A stretch of DNA of 64,000 nucleotides from Escherichia coli (GTDB lineage: Bacteria > Pseudomonadota > Gammaproteobacteria > Enterobacterales > Enterobacteriaceae), in the NCBI RefSeq assembly GCF_011045215.1, contig NZ_CP049201.1. The stretch is one strand, 5' to 3'. The position numbers and the translations under genes were made by a program. The stretch's first letter is position 1. Every line of letters starts with the position of its first letter. A model generated the notes under the pieces. That model saw only the letters and a program-made list of their open reading frames with translations, made no database searches and was not told the DNA's origin. This document shows positions 19,712-51,347 of this stretch, piece after piece.

Positions 19712-22700
19712 TTATCCTTTAAAGCAACGGCGGATCACCACAAAGAACACCGGTACGAAGAAGATTGCCAGCAACGTTGCAGAGACCATTCCTCCCATTA
19801 CCCCGATACCCACAGCGTTCTGCGCGCCACTGCCGGCACCGTTACTGATAGCCAGCGGTAATACGCCGAGAATAAAGGCGAGAGAGGTCATCAGGATAGG
19901 ACGCAGACGCATACGTACTGCCATTAGTGTCGCTTCAACAACATCTTTACCCTCTTTCTCCATGAGATCTTTAGCGAACTCAACAATCAAAATAGCGTTT
20001 TTGGCCGACAAGCCAATTGTCGTTAGCAAGCCCACCATAAAGTAGACGTCATTTTTTTGATTAAAGAGTGTCGCCGCCAGCAGCACGCCGACAATCCCTA
20101 ACGGCACGACCAACATAACCGAGACAGGAATTGACCAGCTTTCATAGAGTGCAGCAAGGCACAGGAAAACAACCACAAAGGAAATTGCTACCAGAGCGGG
20201 AGCCTGGTTTCCCGATAAGCGTTCCTGATACGACATACCCGTCCAGTCATAACCAATGCCCGCAGGTAATTTTGACGCAAGGTTTTCCATCAACGCCATG
20301 GCATCGCCGGAACTGGTTCCTGGCGCGGCTTCCCCCTGAATCTCCATTGACGGCAGACCGTTGTAGCGTTCCAGTCGCGGAGAGCCATACACCCAATGTG
20401 AAGTGGTAAAGGCAGAGAATGGCACCATTTCGCCGTTGGCGCTGCGGACATAAAGTTTATCGACATCTTCTGGCAGCATACGGAATTTGGCATCCGCCTG
20501 AACATACACCTTTTTCACGCGACCACGGTCGATGAAGTCGTTAACGTAAGTCCCACCCAGCGCCGTTGAAATGGTCTGATTGATGTCAGAAAGTGAAACA
20601 CCTAATGCCTGCGCCTTTTCCTGGTCAACTTCCAGTTTAAACTGCGCGGTGTCTTCCAGGCCATTAGGACGCACGCTGACTAAGCTGGCAGGATGTTGCG
20701 CCGCCATACCAAGCAACTGGTTACGGGCCTGGGTTAGGGCATCGTGACCCAGCCCAGCCTGATCAATTAACTCAAAGTCGAAACCCGTTGCCGTGCCCAG
20801 TTCAACAATGGCTGGCATGTTGAATGGAATGACAAAACCGTCGCGGATCTTGCCCAATTCCATTTTGGCACGATGGATTACCGCTTCCGCACTGTTTTCG
20901 TCACCATTACGCTCTTCCCACGGTTTCAGACTGACGAAGGCCATACCGGCGTTTTGTGCCTGGCCGCTGAAGCTAAAGCCGTTAACCGTAAAGACACTTT
21001 CAACGTTCGCTTTCTCGTTCTTCAGATAGTAATCCGTCACTTGATCCAACACTTTTTGCGTCCGCTCTTGCGTCGCGCCAGCGGGTAACTGAATCATGGT
21101 CAGAAAGACACCCTGATCCTCTTCAGGTAAGAAGGAAGACGGAAGACGTAAAAACAACACCACCATTCCTGCAACAATCAGCGCATAGATCAGTAAATAT
21201 CGTCCTGTGGAACCGAGGATTTTGCCGACGCTGTTGGTGTAGTGGTTAACGCTATGATCGAAGGTGGTATTAAACCAGCCGAAGAAACCGCCCTTATTTT
21301 CGTGATGCTCAGCAGAGACGGGTTTAAGCAGCGTTGCACATAACGCAGGGGTAAGAATCAATGCCACCAGAACAGAAAGCGCCATTGCCGAAACGATGGT
21401 GATAGAGAACTGGCGATAAATTGCCCCAGTAGAACCGCCGAAGAATGCCATCGGAATAAATACCGCTGACAGCACCATCGCGATACCCACCAGTGCGCCC
21501 TGGATTTGCGACATTGATTTTTCCGTCGCTTCTTTTGGCGGGAGCTTATCCTCCATCATCACGCGCTCGACGTTCTCCACCACCACTATCGCATCATCGA
21601 CGAGCAGCCCGATGGCAAGCACCATCCCGAACATCGTTAGTGTGTTGATGGAGTAACCAAAAGCGGCGAGGATGGCAAACGTCCCTAACAACACCACGGG
21701 TACCGCAATGGTGGGGATCAGCGTTGCTCGCATATTCTGCAAGAACAGATACATCACCAGGAACACCAGCATAATAGCTTCGAACAGTGTTTTTACCACT
21801 TCGTGAATAGAAAGCTGGACGAATGGCGTGGTGTCATAAGGGTAGAGAACCTTCATTCCCTGCGGGAAGAATGGCTGTAATTCCGCCAGTTTTGCCTTAA
21901 TGGCTTTCGCGGTATCGAGAGCATTCGCGCCGGTTGCCAGCTTAATACCCAGGCCCGCCGCCGGTTTTCCGTTGATGCGAGCGATAACGTTATAGTTTTC
22001 ACCGCCAAGTTCAACCCGTGCGACATCTTTCAGGCGTACCACCGAGCCGTCACTGTTTACGCGCAGGGTCACTTTGCCGAATTCTTCCGGATTTTTTAAC
22101 CGCGTCTGAGCAATAATCGAGGCATTCAACTGTTGCCCTGGTAACGCTGGCGTTCCGCCCAACTGTCCGGCAGCGATCTGATCGTTCTGTACCTTCAACT
22201 GGTTAATCACATCAACCGGTGTCAGTTTATATTTGTTTAGCAGATCGGCGTCCAGCCAGATACGCATCGCATACTGTGCGCCGAAAAGCTGTACGTCACC
22301 GACGCCATTCAGACGGCTAAGCGTATCTTTAACGTTAGAGGCCACATAGTCCGAGATATCGTCCTGTGTGGTGTCTGGGTTATCAGAGACAAAGCCCGCC
22401 ACCATCAAATAGCTGCTACTGGACTTTTCAACACTGATCCCCTGCTGCTGAACCTCCTGCGGCAGCAACGGCGTGGCGAGCTGGAGTTTGTTCTGCACCT
22501 GCACTTGCGCGATATCAGGATCGGTCCCGGACTGGAAGGTAAGGGTAATTGTCACGCTACCGGCGGAATCGCTGGTGGAGGACATATACATCAGGTTATC
22601 GATACCGTTCATATTCTGTTCGATAACCTGCGTCACCGTATCCTGCACGGTCTGCGCATCAGCGCCCGGATAGTTTGCTGAAACAGAAACCGCTGGCGGT

Positions 22701-22827: not shown

Positions 22828-23985
22828 TTACTTCGATGCAGTATCTGCGGGGGTATCGGTAGTGGCTTTAACCTGCTCTCCCGGACGCGCTTTTTGCAGG
22901 CCGCTGACAATGACTTGATCGCCAGATTTCAGACCTTCGCTAATCAACCATTTATCGCCAATCGCCTGACTGGCAACGACAGGGCGCGCTTCAACCTGAC
23001 TTTTATCGTTAACAATCAGCACGGTTGCATCACCACGCGGTGTGCGGCTAACGCCTTGTTGCGGGATAAGAATGGCGTCAGGTTGGACGCCTTCATCAAT
23101 CCGTGCACGCACAAACATACCCGGCAAAAGCGTATGTTGCGGGTTAGGGAAGACAGCACGTAGGGTTATGGAGCCGGTGCTTTCATCAACGGTCACATCG
23201 GAGAATTGCAGCGTACCTTTCAGGGGATAGGTTTGACCGTTTTCCATGACCAACTCTACGTTGCTGGTGGCGTTTTCCTTATGCAAATTTCCTTGCTCTA
23301 CGGATTGCTTCAGCCTCATAAAATCGTTGCTGGATTGGGTCACATCAACGTAGATAGGATCGAGCTGCTGGACAGTTGCCAGTTCAGTCGTTTGCCCATT
23401 AGTGACAAGAGCGCCTTCGGTCACAGTTGATTTGCCGATACGTCCGCTAATTGGCGCAGTCACTTTGGTATAAGCAAGATTGATGCGAGCGCTTTCGACT
23501 GTGGCTTTTGCGGCAATCACGGCGGCATCGGCCTGGCGAGCATCAGCAATGGCCTGGTCGTACTCCTGCTGGCTGATGTATTTCGTACCCACGAGCGGAA
23601 CGTAACGTTTTACCGTCAAATGCGCGATGGCGGCGGCGGCTTCACTTTTCGCCAGTTCGCCTTTCGCGCTGTCATAATTTGCCTGATAGGTCGCGGGATC
23701 GATCTGGTACAGGGACTGGCCTGCTTGCACATCGCTGCCTTCAGTGAAATTGCGATTCAGTACGATCCCGCTAACCTGTGGGCGAACTTCGGCTATACGA
23801 TAAGCATTGGTGCGGCCTGGTAATTCAGTCTTAACTTCTAACGGGGCCGTTTTTACAATATGAACGGTAACCTGCGGTTCACCGACGTGAGCTTTCTCTT
23901 CTCCCTTATCGTTACAATCGGCGATTAAAGCCGCGGAGATCAGAATAAAGGAGGGCAGGAGGAAAAACCTGGCATGTTTCGTCAT
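22828..23985 (-). CDS. acrE: RND efflux membrane-fusion (periplasmic adaptor) protein AcrE
   Basis: 385-aa ORF with lipoprotein signal (MTKHARFFLLPSFILISAALIADC); upstream of and co-oriented with acrF. Confidence 0.95.
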   Translation of the reverse strand: MTKHARFFLLPSFILISAALIADCNDKGEEKAHVGEPQVTVHIVKTAPLEVKTELPGRTNAYRIAEVRPQVSGIVLNRNFTEGSDVQAGQSLYQIDPATYQANYDSAKGELAKSEAAAAIAHLTVKRYVPLVGTKYISQQEYDQAIADARQADAAVIAAKATVESARINLAYTKVTAPISGRIGKSTVTEGALVTNGQTTELATVQQLDPIYVDVTQSSNDFMRLKQSVEQGNLHKENATSNVELVMENGQTYPLKGTLQFSDVTVDESTGSITLRAVFPNPQHTLLPGMFVRARIDEGVQPDAILIPQQGVSRTPRGDATVLIVNDKSQVEARPVVASQAIGDKWLISEGLKSGDQVIVSGLQKARPGEQVKATTDTPADTASK

Positions 23986-41589: not shown

Positions 41590-44500
41590 GTGAGGCGATT
41601 GCCGGGGATTTTACTGCTTACTGGAGCCGCGCTCGTTGTGATCGCTGCCCTGCTGGTTAGCGGCCTGCGTATTGCTTTACCGCATCTTGACGCCTGGCGT
41701 CCGGAAATCCTCAACAAAATAGAATCCGCGACTGGCATGCCGGTTGAAGCCAGTCAGCTCTCAGCCAGCTGGCAGAATTTTGGCCCGACGCTTGAAGCAC
41801 ACGACATCCGTGCAGAACTAAAAGATGGCGGCGAATTTTCGGTTAAACGCGTTACTCTGGCGCTGGATGTCTGGCAGAGCCTGTTACATATGCGCTGGCA
41901 GTTTCGCGACCTCACTTTCTGGCAGCTGCGCTTTCGCACCAACACTCCTATCACCAGCGGTGGTAGAGATGACAGTCTGGAAGCCAGTCACATCAGCGAT
42001 CTGTTTCTTCGTCAATTTGACCATTTCGATCTCCGCGACAGTGAAGTCAGTTTCCTGACGCCATCCGGTCAGCGCGCCGAGCTGGCGATCCCACAACTCA
42101 CCTGGCTGAACGATCCACGTCGACACCGTGCGGAAGGCCTGGTAAGCCTCTCCAGCCTTACCGGACAGCACGGCGTGATGCAGGTGCGCATGGATTTGCG
42201 CGATGATGAGGGGTTGTTAAGCAATGGTCGCGTCTGGCTCCAGGCGGATGACATCGACCTGAAGCCGTGGCTCGGTAAATGGATGCAGGACAATATTGCG
42301 CTGGAAACGGCACAGTTCTCCCTTGAAGGCTGGATGACGATCGACAAAGGCGATGTAACCGGCGGTGACGTCTGGCTGAAACAGGGCGGTGCCAGCTGGT
42401 TGGGCGAGAAGCAAACGCATACGCTGTCGGTGGATAATCTGACCGCGCATATTACGCGTGAAAATCCGGGCTGGCAGTTCTCTATTCCCGATACACGGAT
42501 CACGATGGACGGCAAACCCTGGCCGAGCGGAGCATTGACGCTGGCCTGGATACCGGAACAGGACGTTGGCGGCAAAGACAATAAACGCAGTGACGAACTC
42601 CGGATTCGCGCCAGTAATCTGGAGCTGGCAGGCCTGGAGGGCATACGCCCGCTGGCCGCGAAACTTTCACCTGCACTGGGTGATGTTTGGCGCTCCACAC
42701 AACCGAGCGGCAAGATTAACACGCTGGCGCTGGATATCCCGCTTCAGGCGGCAGACAAGACCCGTTTTCAGGCATCGTGGAGCGATCTGGCCTGGAAGCA
42801 ATGGAAATTATTACCGGGTGCGGAACACTTCTCCGGGACGCTTTCCGGCAGCGTTGAAAATGGTTTGCTTACCGCGTCGATGAAGCAGGCAAAGATGCCT
42901 TACGAAACGGTATTCCGTGCGCCACTGGAAATCGCCGACGGCCAGGCAACTATAAGCTGGCTGAACAATGACAAAGGTTTCCAGCTGGATGGGCGTAATA
43001 TTGACGTTAAAGCCAAAGCCGTCCATGCGCGCGGCGGTTTTCGTTACCTGCAACCTGCTAACGATAAACCCTGGCTGGGTATTCTGGCTGGCATCAGTAC
43101 CGATGATGGTTCACAAGCCTGGCGCTATTTCCCGGAAAACTTGATGGGTAAAGACCTGGTTGATTACTTAAGTGGCGCGATTCAGGGCGGTGAAGCGGAT
43201 AACGCGACGCTGGTTTATGGTGGCAATCCGCAACTCTTCCCCTATAAACACAACGAAGGTCAGTTTGAAGTGCTGGTGCCGCTGCGCAACGCGAAGTTTG
43301 CCTTCCAGCCGGACTGGCCTGCATTAACTAACCTTGATATTGAACTGGACTTTATTAACGACGGTTTATGGATGAAAACCGATGGCGTTAATCTGGGCGG
43401 CGTGCGCGCGAGTAATCTCACCGCAGTGATCCCTGACTACTCGAAAGAAAAACTGCTGATTGACGCTGACATTAAAGGTCCGGGTAAAGCCGTTGGCCCT
43501 TACTTTGATGAGACACCGCTGAAAGATTCTCTGGGGGCGACCCTGCAAGAACTCCAGCTCGACGGCGATGTGAATGCTCGCTTACATCTTGATATCCCGC
43601 TGAACGGCGAACTGGTAACCGCGAAAGGTGATGTGACGCTGCGTAATAACAGTCTGTTTATCAAACCACTCGACAGCACCCTGAAAAATTTGAGCGGTAA
43701 ATTCAGCTTTATCAATGGCGATCTGCAAAGTGAACCACTGACAGCAAGCTGGTTTAATCAGCCGTTGAACGTGGATTTTTCCACCAAAGAAGGGGCAAAA
43801 GCCTACCAGGTCGCGGTGAATCTCAACGGTAACTGGCAACCAGCGAAAACCGGCGTTCTGCCTGCAGCGGTGAACGAAGCATTGAGTGGCAGCGTGGCGT
43901 GGGATGGTAAAGTGGGCATTGTTCTGCCTTATCATGCTGGCGCGACGTATAACGTAGAGCTAAACGGCGATTTGAAGAATGTGAGCAGTCACTTACCTTC
44001 ACCGTTAGCCAAACCTGCGGGTGAACCACTGCCGGTAAACGTTAAGGTTGATGGCAATCTCAACAGCTTTGATTTAACCGGACAGGCTGGTGCGGATAAC
44101 CATTTCAATAGCCGCTGGTTGCTCGGTCAAAAGCTGACGCTCGACCGTGCTATTTGGGCGGCAGACAGTAAAACGCTCCCGCCGTTGCCGGAACAAAGTG
44201 GCGTTGAACTCAATATGCCGCCGATGAATGGTGCCGAGTGGCTGGCCCTGTTCCAGAAAGGCGCGGCGGAGAGTGTCGGTGGTGCAGCGAGTTTCCCACA
44301 ACACATAACGTTACGTACGCCTATGTTGTCACTGGGAAATCAGCAATGGAATAACCTGAGTATTGTTTCGCAACCGACGGCAAATGGCACCCAGGTTGAG
44401 GCGCAAGGGCGTGAAATCAACGCCACGCTAGCGATGCGTAATAACGCGCCGTGGCTGGCGAATATCAAATATCTTTATTACAACCCGAGCGTGGCGAAAA

Positions 44501-45390
44501 CTCGTGGTGATTCAACGCCGTCATCACCTTTCCCGACAACGGAGCGCATTAACTTCCGTGGCTGGCCGGACGCACAAATACGATGCGCAGAGTGCTGGTT
44601 CTGGGGGCAAAAATTCGGTCGTATTGACAGTGATCTCACCATTTCTGGCGATACATTAACGCTGACCAATGGACTGATTGATACCGGTTTCTCGCGGCTT
44701 ACTGCCGATGGTGAATGGGTTAATAATCCGGGGAATGAACGTACCTCGCTGAAAGGAAAACTGCGCGGGCAGAAAATTGATGCCGCCGCAGAATTTTTTG
44801 GTGTCACGACGCCCATACGGCAGTCGTCATTTAATGTGGATTACGATTTACACTGGCGTAAAGCACCGTGGCAGCCAGATGAGGCGACGTTGAATGGCAT
44901 CATTCATACTCAACTGGGTAAAGGCGAAATTACCGAAATCAATACCGGACATGCCGGGCAATTGCTGCGCTTATTGAGCGTAGATGCCCTGATGCGTAAG
45001 CTGCGTTTTGATTTCAGAGACACTTTTGGCGAAGGGTTCTATTTTGACTCCATTCGCAGCACCGCGTGGATTAAAGACGGCGTTATGCACACCGACGACA
45101 CGCTGGTGGATGGCCTGGAGGCGGATATCGCCATGAAAGGGTCGGTAAATCTGGTACGTCGCGACCTGAATATGGAAGCGGTTGTCGCACCAGAGATTTC
45201 TGCGACGGTGGGCGTGGCTGCGGCTTTTGCGGTTAACCCCATTGTTGGCGCGGCAGTGTTTGCCGCCAGTAAAGTGCTGGGGCCGCTGTGGAGCAAAGTC
45301 TCCATTTTGCGCTATCACATTTCGGGTCCGCTGGACGATCCGCAAATCAACGAAGTGTTGCGCCAACCGCGTAAAGAAAAAGCGCAATGA
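41590..45390 (+). CDS. yhdP: AsmA-like inner-membrane-anchored giant protein YhdP
   Basis: 1266-aa ORF from GTG with N-terminal TM anchor (LLLTGAALVVIAALLVSGL) and long beta-rich periplasmic body. Confidence 0.93.
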   Translation: MRRLPGILLLTGAALVVIAALLVSGLRIALPHLDAWRPEILNKIESATGMPVEASQLSASWQNFGPTLEAHDIRAELKDGGEFSVKRVTLALDVWQSLLHMRWQFRDLTFWQLRFRTNTPITSGGRDDSLEASHISDLFLRQFDHFDLRDSEVSFLTPSGQRAELAIPQLTWLNDPRRHRAEGLVSLSSLTGQHGVMQVRMDLRDDEGLLSNGRVWLQADDIDLKPWLGKWMQDNIALETAQFSLEGWMTIDKGDVTGGDVWLKQGGASWLGEKQTHTLSVDNLTAHITRENPGWQFSIPDTRITMDGKPWPSGALTLAWIPEQDVGGKDNKRSDELRIRASNLELAGLEGIRPLAAKLSPALGDVWRSTQPSGKINTLALDIPLQAADKTRFQASWSDLAWKQWKLLPGAEHFSGTLSGSVENGLLTASMKQAKMPYETVFRAPLEIADGQATISWLNNDKGFQLDGRNIDVKAKAVHARGGFRYLQPANDKPWLGILAGISTDDGSQAWRYFPENLMGKDLVDYLSGAIQGGEADNATLVYGGNPQLFPYKHNEGQFEVLVPLRNAKFAFQPDWPALTNLDIELDFINDGLWMKTDGVNLGGVRASNLTAVIPDYSKEKLLIDADIKGPGKAVGPYFDETPLKDSLGATLQELQLDGDVNARLHLDIPLNGELVTAKGDVTLRNNSLFIKPLDSTLKNLSGKFSFINGDLQSEPLTASWFNQPLNVDFSTKEGAKAYQVAVNLNGNWQPAKTGVLPAAVNEALSGSVAWDGKVGIVLPYHAGATYNVELNGDLKNVSSHLPSPLAKPAGEPLPVNVKVDGNLNSFDLTGQAGADNHFNSRWLLGQKLTLDRAIWAADSKTLPPLPEQSGVELNMPPMNGAEWLALFQKGAAESVGGAASFPQHITLRTPMLSLGNQQWNNLSIVSQPTANGTQVEAQGREINATLAMRNNAPWLANIKYLYYNPSVAKTRGDSTPSSPFPTTERINFRGWPDAQIRCAECWFWGQKFGRIDSDLTISGDTLTLTNGLIDTGFSRLTADGEWVNNPGNERTSLKGKLRGQKIDAAAEFFGVTTPIRQSSFNVDYDLHWRKAPWQPDEATLNGIIHTQLGKGEITEINTGHAGQLLRLLSVDALMRKLRFDFRDTFGEGFYFDSIRSTAWIKDGVMHTDDTLVDGLEADIAMKGSVNLVRRDLNMEAVVAPEISATVGVAAAFAVNPIVGAAVFAASKVLGPLWSKVSILRYHISGPLDDPQINEVLRQPRKEKAQ

Positions 45391-45464
45391 TTTGACGAGG
45401 GCGCATAATTGCCCCAATCTCATAAGATAATCGTTGCCAAAGGCCAACGAGCCAGAACATAACC

Positions 45465-45502
45465 GTAGGCTGGATAGGGCGTTCACGCCGCATCCGGCAG
45501 CC
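45465..45502 (-). repeat. REP (repetitive extragenic palindromic) element
   Basis: Reverse strand reads GCTGCCGGATGCGGCGTGAACGCCCTATCCAGCCTAC, matching the E. coli REP consensus; in the yhdP-tldD intergenic region. Confidence 0.8.
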
Positions 45503-45530
45503 GTAAAAAATCCTCTACTGCAGTAACTAA

Positions 45531-46991
<1,461 letters not shown>

Positions 46992-47118
46992 TAATTTCAT
47001 TATTTTCAGAAGGATAATTAATCTTTCTACGTGCACGAACGGTCCCCTCGCTCCTCTGGGGTTAGGGTGAGGGGAACCCGTTAGCACAGGTTTGTACAAC
47101 GTAACAGTACAATATGAA

Positions 47119-48048
47119 TTACTTCTCTTTCCCGCGCCCGTGCATCTCCTGAAACAATTTACCGACCTCAACAAAATAATCCGTCAGCGAGTTGATCACG
47201 ACCTGTACCTTCAGCGGCAGCTTATCTTTTTCGGTATATAACGCATAAACCGGGCGTGGATCTGACTGATAACGCGGCAGCAGGATCTCCAGCTCCCCAC
47301 GATTGATCTCGTTGATCACCCACATCAGCGGCACGTAGGCGATCCCGGCACCCGCCGTTAGCCAGCGCACCAGCGTCATCGGATCATTAGTCACAAATCT
47401 CCCTTGCGGGATCAGGCGAGTCGAGATCCCTTCCGGTGCAATCAGTTCAAATTCATTGTCGGGCCGCACGCTGTATTCAAGCCATGAATGGCTACTTAAA
47501 TCGGCGGGTTTTTCCGGTATACCGTATTGTGTGAGATAGCTTTTCGCGGCGCACACCACCATTGGCATCGCGCCAAGACGGCGGGAAAACAGGCTGGAAT
47601 CCTGCAACGCGCCGACGCGGATCACCACATCCAGACCGTCGGCAATCAGGTCGGGGGCTGGAATTCCGGTAACCAGATTGACGCTCAAACCTGGGTATTC
47701 TTTCAGCATTTTGGCTGTCAGCCCGGCGAGAACATTTTGTGCCATAGTTGAAGAACAGCCAATGCGTAGCGTCCCGATGGGGGTGTTATTGAAGGCATAC
47801 AGTTGCTCATGAACATCCTGCACTTCATGAAGCATACGACGGCAGCCCTGGTAGTAAATTCTGCCGGCTTCGGTCAGGCCAATGCTGCGTGTGCTACGGT
47901 TTAACAGCTTTACCTGCAACTCATCTTCCAGTTTTGACACCGTCTGACTGATGGACGAAACGCTCATCTGTAGCTGTCTGGCGGCGGCGGTAAAAGAGCC
48001 AAATTCAACTACTTTGGCAAACACCGACATGCGTTTTAGTCGTTCCAT
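47119..48048 (-). CDS. aaeR: LysR-family transcriptional activator AaeR
   Basis: 309-aa ORF with N-terminal LysR HTH; divergent from aaeXAB. Confidence 0.92.
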   Translation of the reverse strand: MERLKRMSVFAKVVEFGSFTAAARQLQMSVSSISQTVSKLEDELQVKLLNRSTRSIGLTEAGRIYYQGCRRMLHEVQDVHEQLYAFNNTPIGTLRIGCSSTMAQNVLAGLTAKMLKEYPGLSVNLVTGIPAPDLIADGLDVVIRVGALQDSSLFSRRLGAMPMVVCAAKSYLTQYGIPEKPADLSSHSWLEYSVRPDNEFELIAPEGISTRLIPQGRFVTNDPMTLVRWLTAGAGIAYVPLMWVINEINRGELEILLPRYQSDPRPVYALYTEKDKLPLKVQVVINSLTDYFVEVGKLFQEMHGRGKEK

Positions 48049-48230
48049 TATTCACTCTGACTTAAAAGTGATTTAGATCACATAATATAGATAACAGCAT
48101 AACAGTTACGCTAATATATTAAATATCAATCTACAGCAATGTTGCTCTCGCCCGGCTTTCCATGCCCTTCTCTGCGGCGACAGATGCTGAAAATAATAAC
48201 GCCTGCTCTCTCTATACAACCAAGGTCAAC

Positions 48231-48434
48231 ATGAGTCTGTTTCCCGTTATCGTGGTGTTTGGGCTGTCCTTCCCACCGATATTTTTTGAATTGCTTTTAT
48301 CACTGGCGATTTTCTGGCTGGTGCGCCGGGTACTTGTGCCAACAGGTATCTACGACTTTGTCTGGCATCCGGCGTTGTTCAACACCGCGCTCTATTGCTG
48401 CTTGTTTTATTTGATATCGCGACTGTTCGTTTGA
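48231..48434 (+). CDS. aaeX: Small membrane protein AaeX
   Basis: 67 aa from internal ATG ([43 protein letters not shown]...). Confidence 0.85.
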
Positions 48435-48441
48435 GGTTGAA

Positions 48442-49374
48442 GTGAAAACACTAATAAGAAAATTCTCCCGTACGGCCATCACGGTCGTATTAGTCATTCT
48501 GGCCTTCATCGCAATTTTTAATGCCTGGGTCTATTACACCGAATCCCCGTGGACGCGTGACGCGCGCTTTAGCGCTGACGTCGTTGCGATCGCGCCGGAC
48601 GTTTCTGGACTCATTACCCAGGTGAATGTTCATGATAACCAGCTGGTGAAAAAAGGACAGGTACTGTTCACCATCGACCAGCCGCGCTATCAAAAGGCGC
48701 TTGAGGAAGCGCAAGCCGATGTTGCTTATTATCAGGTACTGGCACAGGAGAAACGCCAGGAGGCCGGACGTCGTAACCGTCTCGGTGTGCAGGCGATGTC
48801 TCGCGAAGAGATCGACCAGGCCAACAACGTACTACAAACGGTTCTGCATCAGTTAGCGAAAGCGCAAGCGACCCGCGATCTGGCAAAACTGGATCTTGAA
48901 CGCACGGTGATCCGCGCGCCAGCGGATGGCTGGGTGACCAACCTCAACGTCTATACCGGTGAGTTTATTACTCGAGGATCAACGGCGGTTGCGCTGGTGA
49001 AACAGAACTCCTTCTATGTACTGGCCTATATGGAAGAAACTAAGCTGGAAGGGGTGCGCCCTGGGTATCGTGCAGAGATCACGCCGCTTGGCAGTAACAA
49101 AGTGCTGAAAGGGACTGTTGATAGTGTTGCCGCTGGGGTCACCAACGCCAGCAGCACGCGTGACGATAAAGGGATGGCGACCATCGACTCTAACCTTGAA
49201 TGGGTGCGTTTGGCGCAACGTGTTCCGGTTCGTATTCGTCTCGACAACCAGCAAGAGAACATCTGGCCTGCGGGCACCACTGCTACAGTGGTGGTCACTG
49301 GCAAACAAGATCGCGACGAAAGCCAGGATTCGTTCTTCCGTAAAATGGCCCATCGCCTGCGTGAGTTTGGTTAA
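48442..49374 (+). CDS. aaeA: Aromatic carboxylic acid efflux pump membrane-fusion subunit AaeA
   Basis: 310-aa ORF (GTG start) with N-terminal TM and HlyD-like periplasmic domain. Confidence 0.93.
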
Positions 49375-49379
49375 TCACG

Positions 49380-51347
49380 ATGGGTATTTTCTCCATTGCT
49401 AACCAACATATTCGCTTTGCGGTAAAACTGGCGACCGCCATTGTACTGGCGCTGTTTGTTGGCTTTCACTTCCAGCTGGAAACGCCACGCTGGGCGGTAC
49501 TGACAGCGGCGATTGTTGCCGCCGGTCCGGCCTTTGCTGCGGGAGGTGAACCGTATTCTGGCGCTATTCGCTATCGTGGCTTTTTGCGCATCATCGGCAC
49601 ATTTATTGGCTGTATTGCTGGACTGGTGATCATCATTGCGATGATCCGCGCACCATTATTGATGATTCTGGTGTGCTGTATCTGGGCCGGTTTTTGTACC
49701 TGGATATCCTCGCTGGTACGAATAGAAAACTCGTATGCGTGGGGGCTGGCCGGTTATACCGCGCTGATCATTGTGATCACCATTCAGCCGGAACCATTGC
49801 TTACGCCGCAGTTTGCCGTCGAACGTTGTAGCGAGATCGTTATCGGTATTGTGTGTGCGATTATGGCGGATTTGCTCTTTTCTCCGCGATCGATCAAACA
49901 AGAAGTGGATCGAGAGCTGGAAAGTTTGCTGGTCGCGCAATATCAATTAATGCAACTCTGTATCAAGCATGGCGATGGTGAAGTTGTCGATAAAGCCTGG
50001 GGCGACTTGGTGCGACGCACCACGGCGCTACAAGGCATGCGCAGCAACCTGAATATGGAATCTTCCCGCTGGGCGCGGGCCAATCGACGTTTAAAAGCGA
50101 TCAATACGCTATCGCTGACGCTGATTACCCAATCCTGCGAAACTTATCTTATTCAGAATACGCGCCCGGAATTGATCACTGATACTTTCCGCGAATTTTT
50201 TGACACGCCGGTAGAAACCGCGCAGGACGTTCACAAGCAGCTCAAACGCCTGCGGAGAGTTATCGCCTGGACCGGGGAACGGGAAACGCCTGTCACCATT
50301 TATAGCTGGGTCGCGGCGGCAACGCGTTATCAGCTTCTCAAGCGCGGCGTTATCAGTAACACAAAAATCAACGCCACCGAAGAAGAGATCCTGCAAGGCG
50401 AACCGGAAGTAAAAGTAGAGTCAGCCGAACGTCATCATGCAATGGTTAACTTCTGGCGAACCACACTTTCCTGCATTCTGGGCACGCTTTTCTGGCTGTG
50501 GACGGGCTGGACTTCCGGCAGTGGTGCAATGGTGATGATTGCGGTAGTGACGTCACTGGCAATGCGTTTGCCGAATCCACGCATGGTGGCGATCGACTTT
50601 ATCTACGGGACGCTGGCCGCGCTGCCGTTAGGGCTGCTCTACTTTTTGGTGATTATCCCTAATACCCAACAGAGCATGTTGCTGCTGTGTATTAGCCTGG
50701 CAGTGCTGGGATTCTTCCTCGGTATAGAAGTACAGAAACGGCGACTGGGCTCGATGGGGGCACTGGCCAGCACCATAAATATTATCGTGCTGGATAACCC
50801 GATGACTTTCCATTTCAGTCAGTTTCTCGACAGCGCATTAGGGCAAATCGTCGGCTGTGTGCTCGCGTTCACCGTTATTTTGCTGGTGCGGGATAAATCG
50901 CGCGACAGGACTGGACGTGTACTGCTTAATCAGTTTGTTTCTGCCGCTGTTTCCGCGATGACTACCAATGTGGCACGTCGTAAAGAGAACCACCTCCCGG
51001 CACTTTATCAGCAGCTGTTTTTGCTGATGAATAAGTTCCCAGGGGATTTGCCGAAATTTCGCCTGGCGCTGACGATGATTATCGCGCACCAGCGCCTGCG
51101 TGATGCGCCGATCCCGGTTAACGAGGATTTATCAGCGTTTCACCGACAAATGCGCCGCACAGCAGACCATGTGATATCTGCCCGTAGCGATGATAAACGT
51201 CGTCGGTACTTTGGTCAGTTGCTGGAAGAACTTGAAATCTACCAGGAAAAGCTACGCATCTGGCAAGCGCCACCGCAGGTGACGGAACCGGTTCATCGGC
51301 TGGCGGGGATGCTCCATAAGTATCAACATGCGTTGACCGATAGTTAA
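49380..51347 (+). CDS. aaeB: Aromatic carboxylic acid efflux pump subunit AaeB
   Basis: 655-aa polytopic membrane protein (fusaric-acid-resistance-like family). Confidence 0.93.

Follow-up and report, generated by a model that had tools for sequence, protein, structure and literature searches.

Whether the palindrome between the convergent genes tldD and aaeR of Escherichia coli serves both genes as a terminator or represents a copy of a small dispersed repeat is the question raised by this locus. The analyzed window, a stretch of 64,000 nt, belongs to an E. coli chromosome, and its yhdP, tldD, aaeR, and aaeXA genes match K-12 b4472, b3244, b3243, and b3242-b3241, respectively. The hairpin is very probably the tldD-aaeR copy of the BoxC/PIT/TMECO/HPG1 family, in the form of a decayed allele that is carried passively and has no terminator role. 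BoxC repeats of E. coli reportedly go back to Bachellier and colleagues in the 1990s, and PIT elements are said to have been described by Hoyne and Maher in 2000 and 2002. The family, the K-12 locus, and the existence of degenerate alleles are all already published and nothing here is new. With the family known since the 1990s, the locus contained in two K-12 surveys, and degenerate alleles elsewhere already noted, the result matters little alone. Its use is a clean annotation, in which the spacer is labeled as holding a decayed BoxC repeat and not a terminator.

Position and folding of the palindrome

The coding sequences of yhdP (41590-45390) and tldD (45546-46991) lie on the + strand, while that of aaeR (47119-48048) lies on the - strand and converges with tldD; aaeXA is found further along than aaeR. 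The stops of tldD (46991, +) and aaeR (47119, -) bound a 127-nt spacer which contains the element. The 3' UTR of tldD has the C-rich block of the element first, and the 3' UTR of aaeR has its complementary strand. A reading made from the letters alone (hereafter the sequence-only reading) had placed a hairpin at 47035-47085 and quoted the string CCCCTCGCTCCTCTGGGGTTAGGGTGAGGGGAAC, which occupies 47044-47077. The inverted CCCCTC/GAGGGG arms that it described between the two convergent genes are present and sit at the center of an imperfect palindrome that extends well beyond them, a 57-nt repeat element of BoxC type at 47031-47087 that was delimited by RNA and DNA folds and by alignment with K-12 and to which no strand is assigned.

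In the folds, the outermost pairs of the palindrome are formed by GTGC (47031-34) with GCAC (47084-87), followed inwards by the outer stem arm AACGG (47038-47042, +) with its partner CCGTT (47078-82), by TCCCCTCGC (47043-51) with GTGAGGGGA (47067-75), and by an inner stem of CCT (47053-55) with AGG (47064-66). The stem contains a 2-nt bulge and is closed by the 8-nt loop CTGGGGTT (47056-63). Because of the bulge and a mismatch, the palindrome was missed by a repeat finder at its default extension and was recovered by folding. A 71-nt RNA around it has a fold energy of -31.8 kcal/mol on the + strand (z -2.7; 2 of 200 shuffles equally good) and of -29.7 kcal/mol on the - strand (z -3.5; 0 of 200), and the whole 127-nt spacer reaches z -4.3 and -4.7 with none of 200 shuffles folding as well. 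Folded as DNA, the 57-mer yields -14.0 and -11.7 kcal/mol.

Two further AT-rich hairpins are predicted by folding outside the repeat. One of them, AGAAGGAT/ATCTTTCT at 47008-47028 (+), directly follows the tldD stop, and the other, TTGTAC/GTACAA at 47092-47112 (-), directly follows the aaeR stop; neither has a U-tract after it. A small ORF or sRNA in the spacer is unsupported; only mechanical ORFs of 31 and 49 aa occur there, and these run over the gene ends. The element is noncoding, as the sequence-only reading had proposed.

Family identity and decay of the copy

A BLASTN search with the 66-mer at 47030-47095 returned 58,698 places in 5,425 of 5,426 complete E. coli genomes, with a median of 12 and a range of 2-23 per genome. 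The full-length K-12 allele returned 93,533 places (median 18, range 2-35 per genome), of which 93,466 were chromosomal and 67 were located on plasmids. Under the E-value limit used, each place needs a near-exact match of roughly 20 nt and is thus not expected by chance in a 5-Mb genome. The sequence-only reading had suggested a BLASTN search for dispersal of its 50-mer as a check, and the small-repeat alternative is upheld, as the 66-mer is dispersed across E. coli genomes. Within the 64-kb window, no second copy, full TMECO motif, or G4 motif was found, so that the element is single there. This single occurrence would suit a palindrome that is a chance feature of unique spacer sequence, an explanation which is practically inconceivable given the conserved family consensus and the related places, which number in the tens of thousands across E. 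coli. The 9-mer GGGTTAGGG also occurs at 20731-20739 and 23141-23149 of the window, in both cases without adjacent BoxC blocks and probably by chance.

The spacers of the window and of K-12 show 95% column identity apart from a 6-nt gap and two substitutions inside the element, where CCCTCGCCCCTTTGGGGTGAGGGTTAGGGTGAGGGG of K-12 aligns with CCCTCGCTCCTCTGGGG------TTAGGGTGAGGGG of the window. The K-12 site at 3,390,529-3,390,494 is listed verbatim, as CCCTCGCCCCTTTGGGGTGAGGGTTAGGGTGAGGGG, under “TMECO no. 14, type A mm” between aaeR and tldD, at 44 nt from aaeR and 53 nt from tldD in the supplementary table (Holder et al. 2015, PMC4666352). The same K-12 site appears as HPGQ 37 of group HPG1, at position 3390505, with 45 nt to aaeR and 67 nt to tldD (Kaplan et al. 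2016, PMC5100583). According to Holder et al. 2015 (PMC4666352), TMECO is the motif that was first named BoxC and that Hoyne and Maher later termed PIT element. A third survey gives BoxC a size of 56 bp and about 22-32 E. coli copies (PMC2267715). Members of the family are G/C-rich imperfect palindromes found at about 20-30 intergenic positions of the E. coli chromosome.

Nine further K-12 copies share flanks beyond the 36-nt core, namely ..GCAC..ACGGTC on the left and GGGGAA[A/C] on the right, and both are present in the window copy. The BoxC identity is secure because the core and both family flanks are shared with the K-12 copies. A chance match confined to the G-rich 18-mer at the other places is excluded by these conserved flanks and by the published catalogues. 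In addition, the window copy is orthologous to a catalogued one, with the same flanking genes and an alignable spacer, and belongs to a repeat that is dispersed, multi-copy, chromosomal, and intergenic. The conserved flanks extend its core to a 57-nt palindrome, compared with the published length of ~56 bp.

REP/BIME (PU) elements are likewise small palindromic intergenic dispersed repeats which are transcribed within 3' UTRs, but their sequence is unrelated and no Rfam or REP-like match was found at the element, the true REP being located 1.5 kb upstream. The Rfam scan covered 44000-50000 at E<=10 and gave no match at 46992-47118, and thus none at the element. The sequence-only reading was therefore right to keep the hairpin apart from the nearby REP at 45465-45512. 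A weak Rfam match to the REP-derived naRNA4 was observed at 45468-45512 with 33 bits, which is below the gathering score. The yhdP-tldD spacer (45391-45545) comprises 155 nt in the window and carries a single REP at about 45465-45512, while that of K-12 comprises 429 nt and carries the same REP plus three extra tandem REP-pair units of ~91 nt in a BIME-like cluster. Repeats have thus driven a length polymorphism here as well, 1.5 kb away from the BoxC copy.

The TMECO consensus of Holder et al. 2015 (PMC4666352) consists of three blocks, CCCTCNCCC-N3-6-GGGNGAGGG-N3-GGGNGAGGG, from which a purine-motif intrastrand triplex can arise. The window copy gave no match to the regular expression of this consensus and has one GGGNGAGGG block left, with no second purine block. 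Its pyrimidine block CCCTCGCTC (47045-47053, +), identified from the sequence and the K-12 alignment as block 1 of the triplex motif, is retained with one substitution, a C-to-T change at 47052 relative to the family consensus CCCTCNCCC. At 47054-47064 (+), according to alignments and regular expressions, what is left of loop 1 and of purine block 2 precedes the TTA loop (CTCTGGGG-TTA). Between GGGG (47058-61) and TTA (47062-64), a hexamer is gone that reads TGAGGG in K-12 and AGAGGG in the family consensus, and its deletion is flanked by GGG direct repeats. The last purine block, GGGTGAGGG(G) at 47065-47074 (+), is intact according to folds and regular expression and is the Watson-Crick partner of the pyrimidine block in the folds of the window allele. 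The TTAGGG which the sequence-only reading had assigned to a loop region is present in the letters, but it is composed of the TTA second loop of a type A element and the start of the last purine block. A telomere-like reading of TTAGGG was rejected because its TTA represents the second loop of the type A elements in the family.

The window copy thus resembles BoxC/PIT/TMECO elements in its chromosomal site, which is that of K-12 TMECO no. 14, and in its pyrimidine block, TTA loop, last purine block, and ACGGTC...GGGGAA flanks, but differs in the missing purine hexamer and the C-to-T change in the pyrimidine block, with which a three-strand structure should no longer be possible. With the hexamer gone and the substitutions present, the published three-block consensus fails and a plain Watson-Crick hairpin is left; since one of the three triplex blocks is missing, loss of the intrastrand triplex is predicted. 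The locus has three G-tracts in the window and falls short of the G4 motif, which takes four G3+ tracts and loops of 1-7 nt, whereas the K-12 allele has four G-tracts by inspection. The HPG1 switch motif is represented at this locus by the K-12 orthologue HPGQ 37, in which an upstream C-rich region permits a hairpin alternative (Kaplan et al. 2016, PMC5100583); with three G-tracts, only the hairpin and duplex states of this switch are available to the window allele. As the consensus is not matched although the site is orthologous, the copy is considered a decayed derivative of a family member and not a functional-consensus member, and it falls into the class termed ‘TMECO mutated’ or degenerate by Holder et al. 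2015 (PMC4666352).

The consensus is matched at the same site by K-12, O157 strain 7409, NT1F31, and Escherichia sp. E1V33. Since the latter lies outside E. coli proper and its orthologous tldD-aaeR spacer holds the complete consensus element, the short allele is the derived one. Escherichia sp. E1V33 was the only orthologous case among 43 matches of a genome-contig scan with ACGGTCCCCT-N10-40-GGGGAACCC. The remaining 42 arose by chance in unrelated phyla; two of them were cyanobacterial and, once inspected, proved unrelated. Judging from the GGG direct repeats, the hexamer would most simply have been lost by slipped-strand mispairing between the bounding GGG runs, and two point substitutions were added. 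The one pyrimidine and one purine block that remain would permit only an ordinary Watson-Crick hairpin, and the potential of the full allele for a triplex (three blocks) and a G-quadruplex (four G-tracts) would be gone.

Transcription across the spacer

The sequence-only reading had offered a terminator shared by tldD and aaeR as one explanation of the hairpin and had proposed to look for the 3' ends of both genes by Term-seq. Like intrinsic terminators, the element is a GC-rich stem-loop after stop codons, but no T/U run follows its stem on either strand, the + strand continuing with AGCACAGGTTTGT and the - strand with CGTGCACGTAGAAAG, and a U-tract is likewise absent after the stem in ten K-12 copies. 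A scan for consensus promoters and terminators gave nothing within the spacer. The curated Term-seq 3'-end tables of K-12, which cover three growth conditions, hold no entry at 3,390,3xx-3,390,6xx (Adams et al. 2021, PMC7815308), and so none at the base of the stem; given the modest expression of tldD and aaeR, the curation threshold could have hidden a weak 3' end in the spacer. Both genes are also absent from the TERMITe supplementary tables. All transcript data come from K-12 and its full-length allele, and the simpler hairpin of the window strain could behave differently.

A Rho termination region was reported in K-12 at 3,390,148 on the minus (tldD) strand, with a Rho score of 5.99 (p 5.5e-18) and upstream/downstream read counts of 148/26 without bicyclomycin versus 231/243 with it (Adams et al. 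2021, PMC7815308). By this coarse call, made in 800-nt windows, the region is located ~350 nt past the element and antisense within aaeR, equivalent to ~47420 on the + strand of the window. Because the Rho region lies beyond the element, tldD transcription passes the element and is ended by Rho. This ending antisense to aaeR was shown for K-12, and we infer the same for the window strain. The read-through of tldD overlaps the 3' third of aaeR, which could make the convergent transcription units interfere with each other.

The highly expressed adk gene of K-12 carries a full BoxC copy 24 nt past its stop codon, at 497,843-497,878 (locus 497,693-498,028). Its mapped 3' end lies at 497,939/40, 61 nt past the BoxC copy and after a canonical hairpin-plus-U terminator, GGCCGGAT...ATTCGGCCTTTT. 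This read-through indicates that in vivo a full BoxC copy does not terminate transcription and does not mark a stable processed end.

A bidirectional, Rho-independent terminator shared by the two genes would fit a stable GC-rich hairpin between convergent genes; several K-12 BoxC copies lie between the convergent pairs tauD/hemB, frlR/yhfS, zntA/tusA, and aaeR/tldD, and such a role was speculated on by Kaplan et al. 2016 (PMC5100583). It is nevertheless very unlikely in view of the missing T-run, the lack of K-12 3' ends in the spacer, the downstream Rho region, and the passage of the adk transcript through its copy. Other BoxC copies are located inside operons in K-12, in pstA-pstB and yihS-yihR, and PIT elements had shown neither promoter nor terminator activity in earlier reporter assays that Holder et al. 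2015 (PMC4666352) cite. A switch in non-B DNA, by which an intrastrand triplex or a G-quadruplex/hairpin/duplex equilibrium regulates the neighbors or stalls polymerases, would draw on the in vitro formation of triplex or G4 by full-length members (Holder et al. 2015, PMC4666352; Kaplan et al. 2016, PMC5100583). The window allele lacks one of three triplex blocks and one of four G-tracts, an in vivo DMS footprint did not point to a stable triplex even in a full copy (Holder et al. 2015, PMC4666352), and no shared function was found to link the flanking genes, which leaves such a switch extremely improbable. The hairpin is predicted to be strong as RNA on both strands, and Rho-dependent termination occurs downstream of tldD.

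The element could then act as a barrier to 3'-to-5' exonucleases, with Rho-ended transcripts trimmed back to the stem and the tldD and aaeR mRNAs stabilized in the way of REP hairpins. It is established that REP hairpins stabilize upstream mRNA, and Rho-terminated transcripts are, as Dar and Sorek reportedly found in 2018, often trimmed to stable stems. No processed 3' end is reported at the K-12 element, and the adk copy also has none, the sole adk 3' end being that of the downstream terminator; a barrier of this kind is accordingly regarded as unlikely, though less so than the terminator or the switch. Under the preferred reading of a decayed and passively carried BoxC copy, the location of the downstream termination signal suggests that the element is most likely transcribed passively within the tldD and aaeR 3' UTRs, and it would neither end transcription nor be regulatory.

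Alleles across E. coli

Orthologous alleles were fetched from eight other genomes, and the E. coli alleles of the locus form a series in length, spanning 72, 66, 65, or 60 nt. The full-length allele is present in K-12 with GGGGTGAGGG and in O157:H7 strain 7409 and NT1F31 with GGGGAGAGGG. Alleles shorter by 6 nt occur in the window, 2013C-4361, and TR01 with CGCTCC and in NRG857C with CGCCCC. EC16 has lost 7 nt, 1916D18 shows a different 7-nt loss, and MNCRE44 lacks 12 nt, with CCCCTCGCCCCTCTGGGGTTAGGGG. Among ~5,400 E. coli genomes, at least five alleles of this one orthologous copy thus differ by 6, 7, or 12 nt. The full-length allele accounts for ~38% of genomes (~2,040), the minus-6/7 alleles for ~50% (2,700-2,900), and the minus-12 allele for ~10% (552), by estimates that combine BLAST identity bands with 40 evenly spaced rows of the ranking and do not amount to a full census. 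The exact 66-mer of the window was found in only five genomes and differs from the common minus-6 allele by one base, the A at 47083.

The minus-12 allele forms a tidier hairpin as DNA, at -17.9 kcal/mol and z -3.9. MNCRE44 and NRG857C have spacer SNPs in common, which fits a stepwise decay that would run from the full element over minus 6 to minus 12. Holder et al. 2015 (PMC4666352) described TMECO loci as exceptionally variable and, in other strains, frequently “mutated”, and the length series at tldD-aaeR agrees with this variability. On a small scale, it illustrates what Holder et al. claim for TMECO motifs, namely that they are local instability hot spots. Local indel instability is the only demonstrated effect of the element, and the main consequence of its presence would be this instability, seen as the hexamer-stepped length polymorphism among E. 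coli lineages; the window allele appears to have no function of its own. The minus-12 allele, found in the ST131-like genome MNCRE44, folds tighter than the full element and recalls the ‘palindrome effect’ of Holder et al.

The element is kept in 5,415 of 5,426 genomes, which might reflect some selected role and could equally result from simple vertical inheritance. Recurrent slippage in hexamer steps could also act as a heritable tuning knob and not merely as neutral decay. Such a knob would mean that switching between triplex/G4-capable and plain-hairpin alleles alters 3'-UTR stability or the transcriptional interference between tldD and aaeR by lineage, although there is very little likelihood of it.

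One genome carries an allele at odds with its label: NZ_CP033605.1, listed as O157:H7 strain TR01, has the window-type minus-6 allele together with its spacer SNPs, and its TldD protein accession differs from that of O157:H7 strain 7409, which has the full allele. A serotype label attached to a different lineage or recombination at the locus could account for this mismatch. The number of BoxC-like places also varies strongly, from 2 to 35 per genome, with only 3 in minus-12 genomes, 5 in NRG857C, and 17-29 in many others. This uneven copy number suggests a lineage-wide loss or gain of the family.
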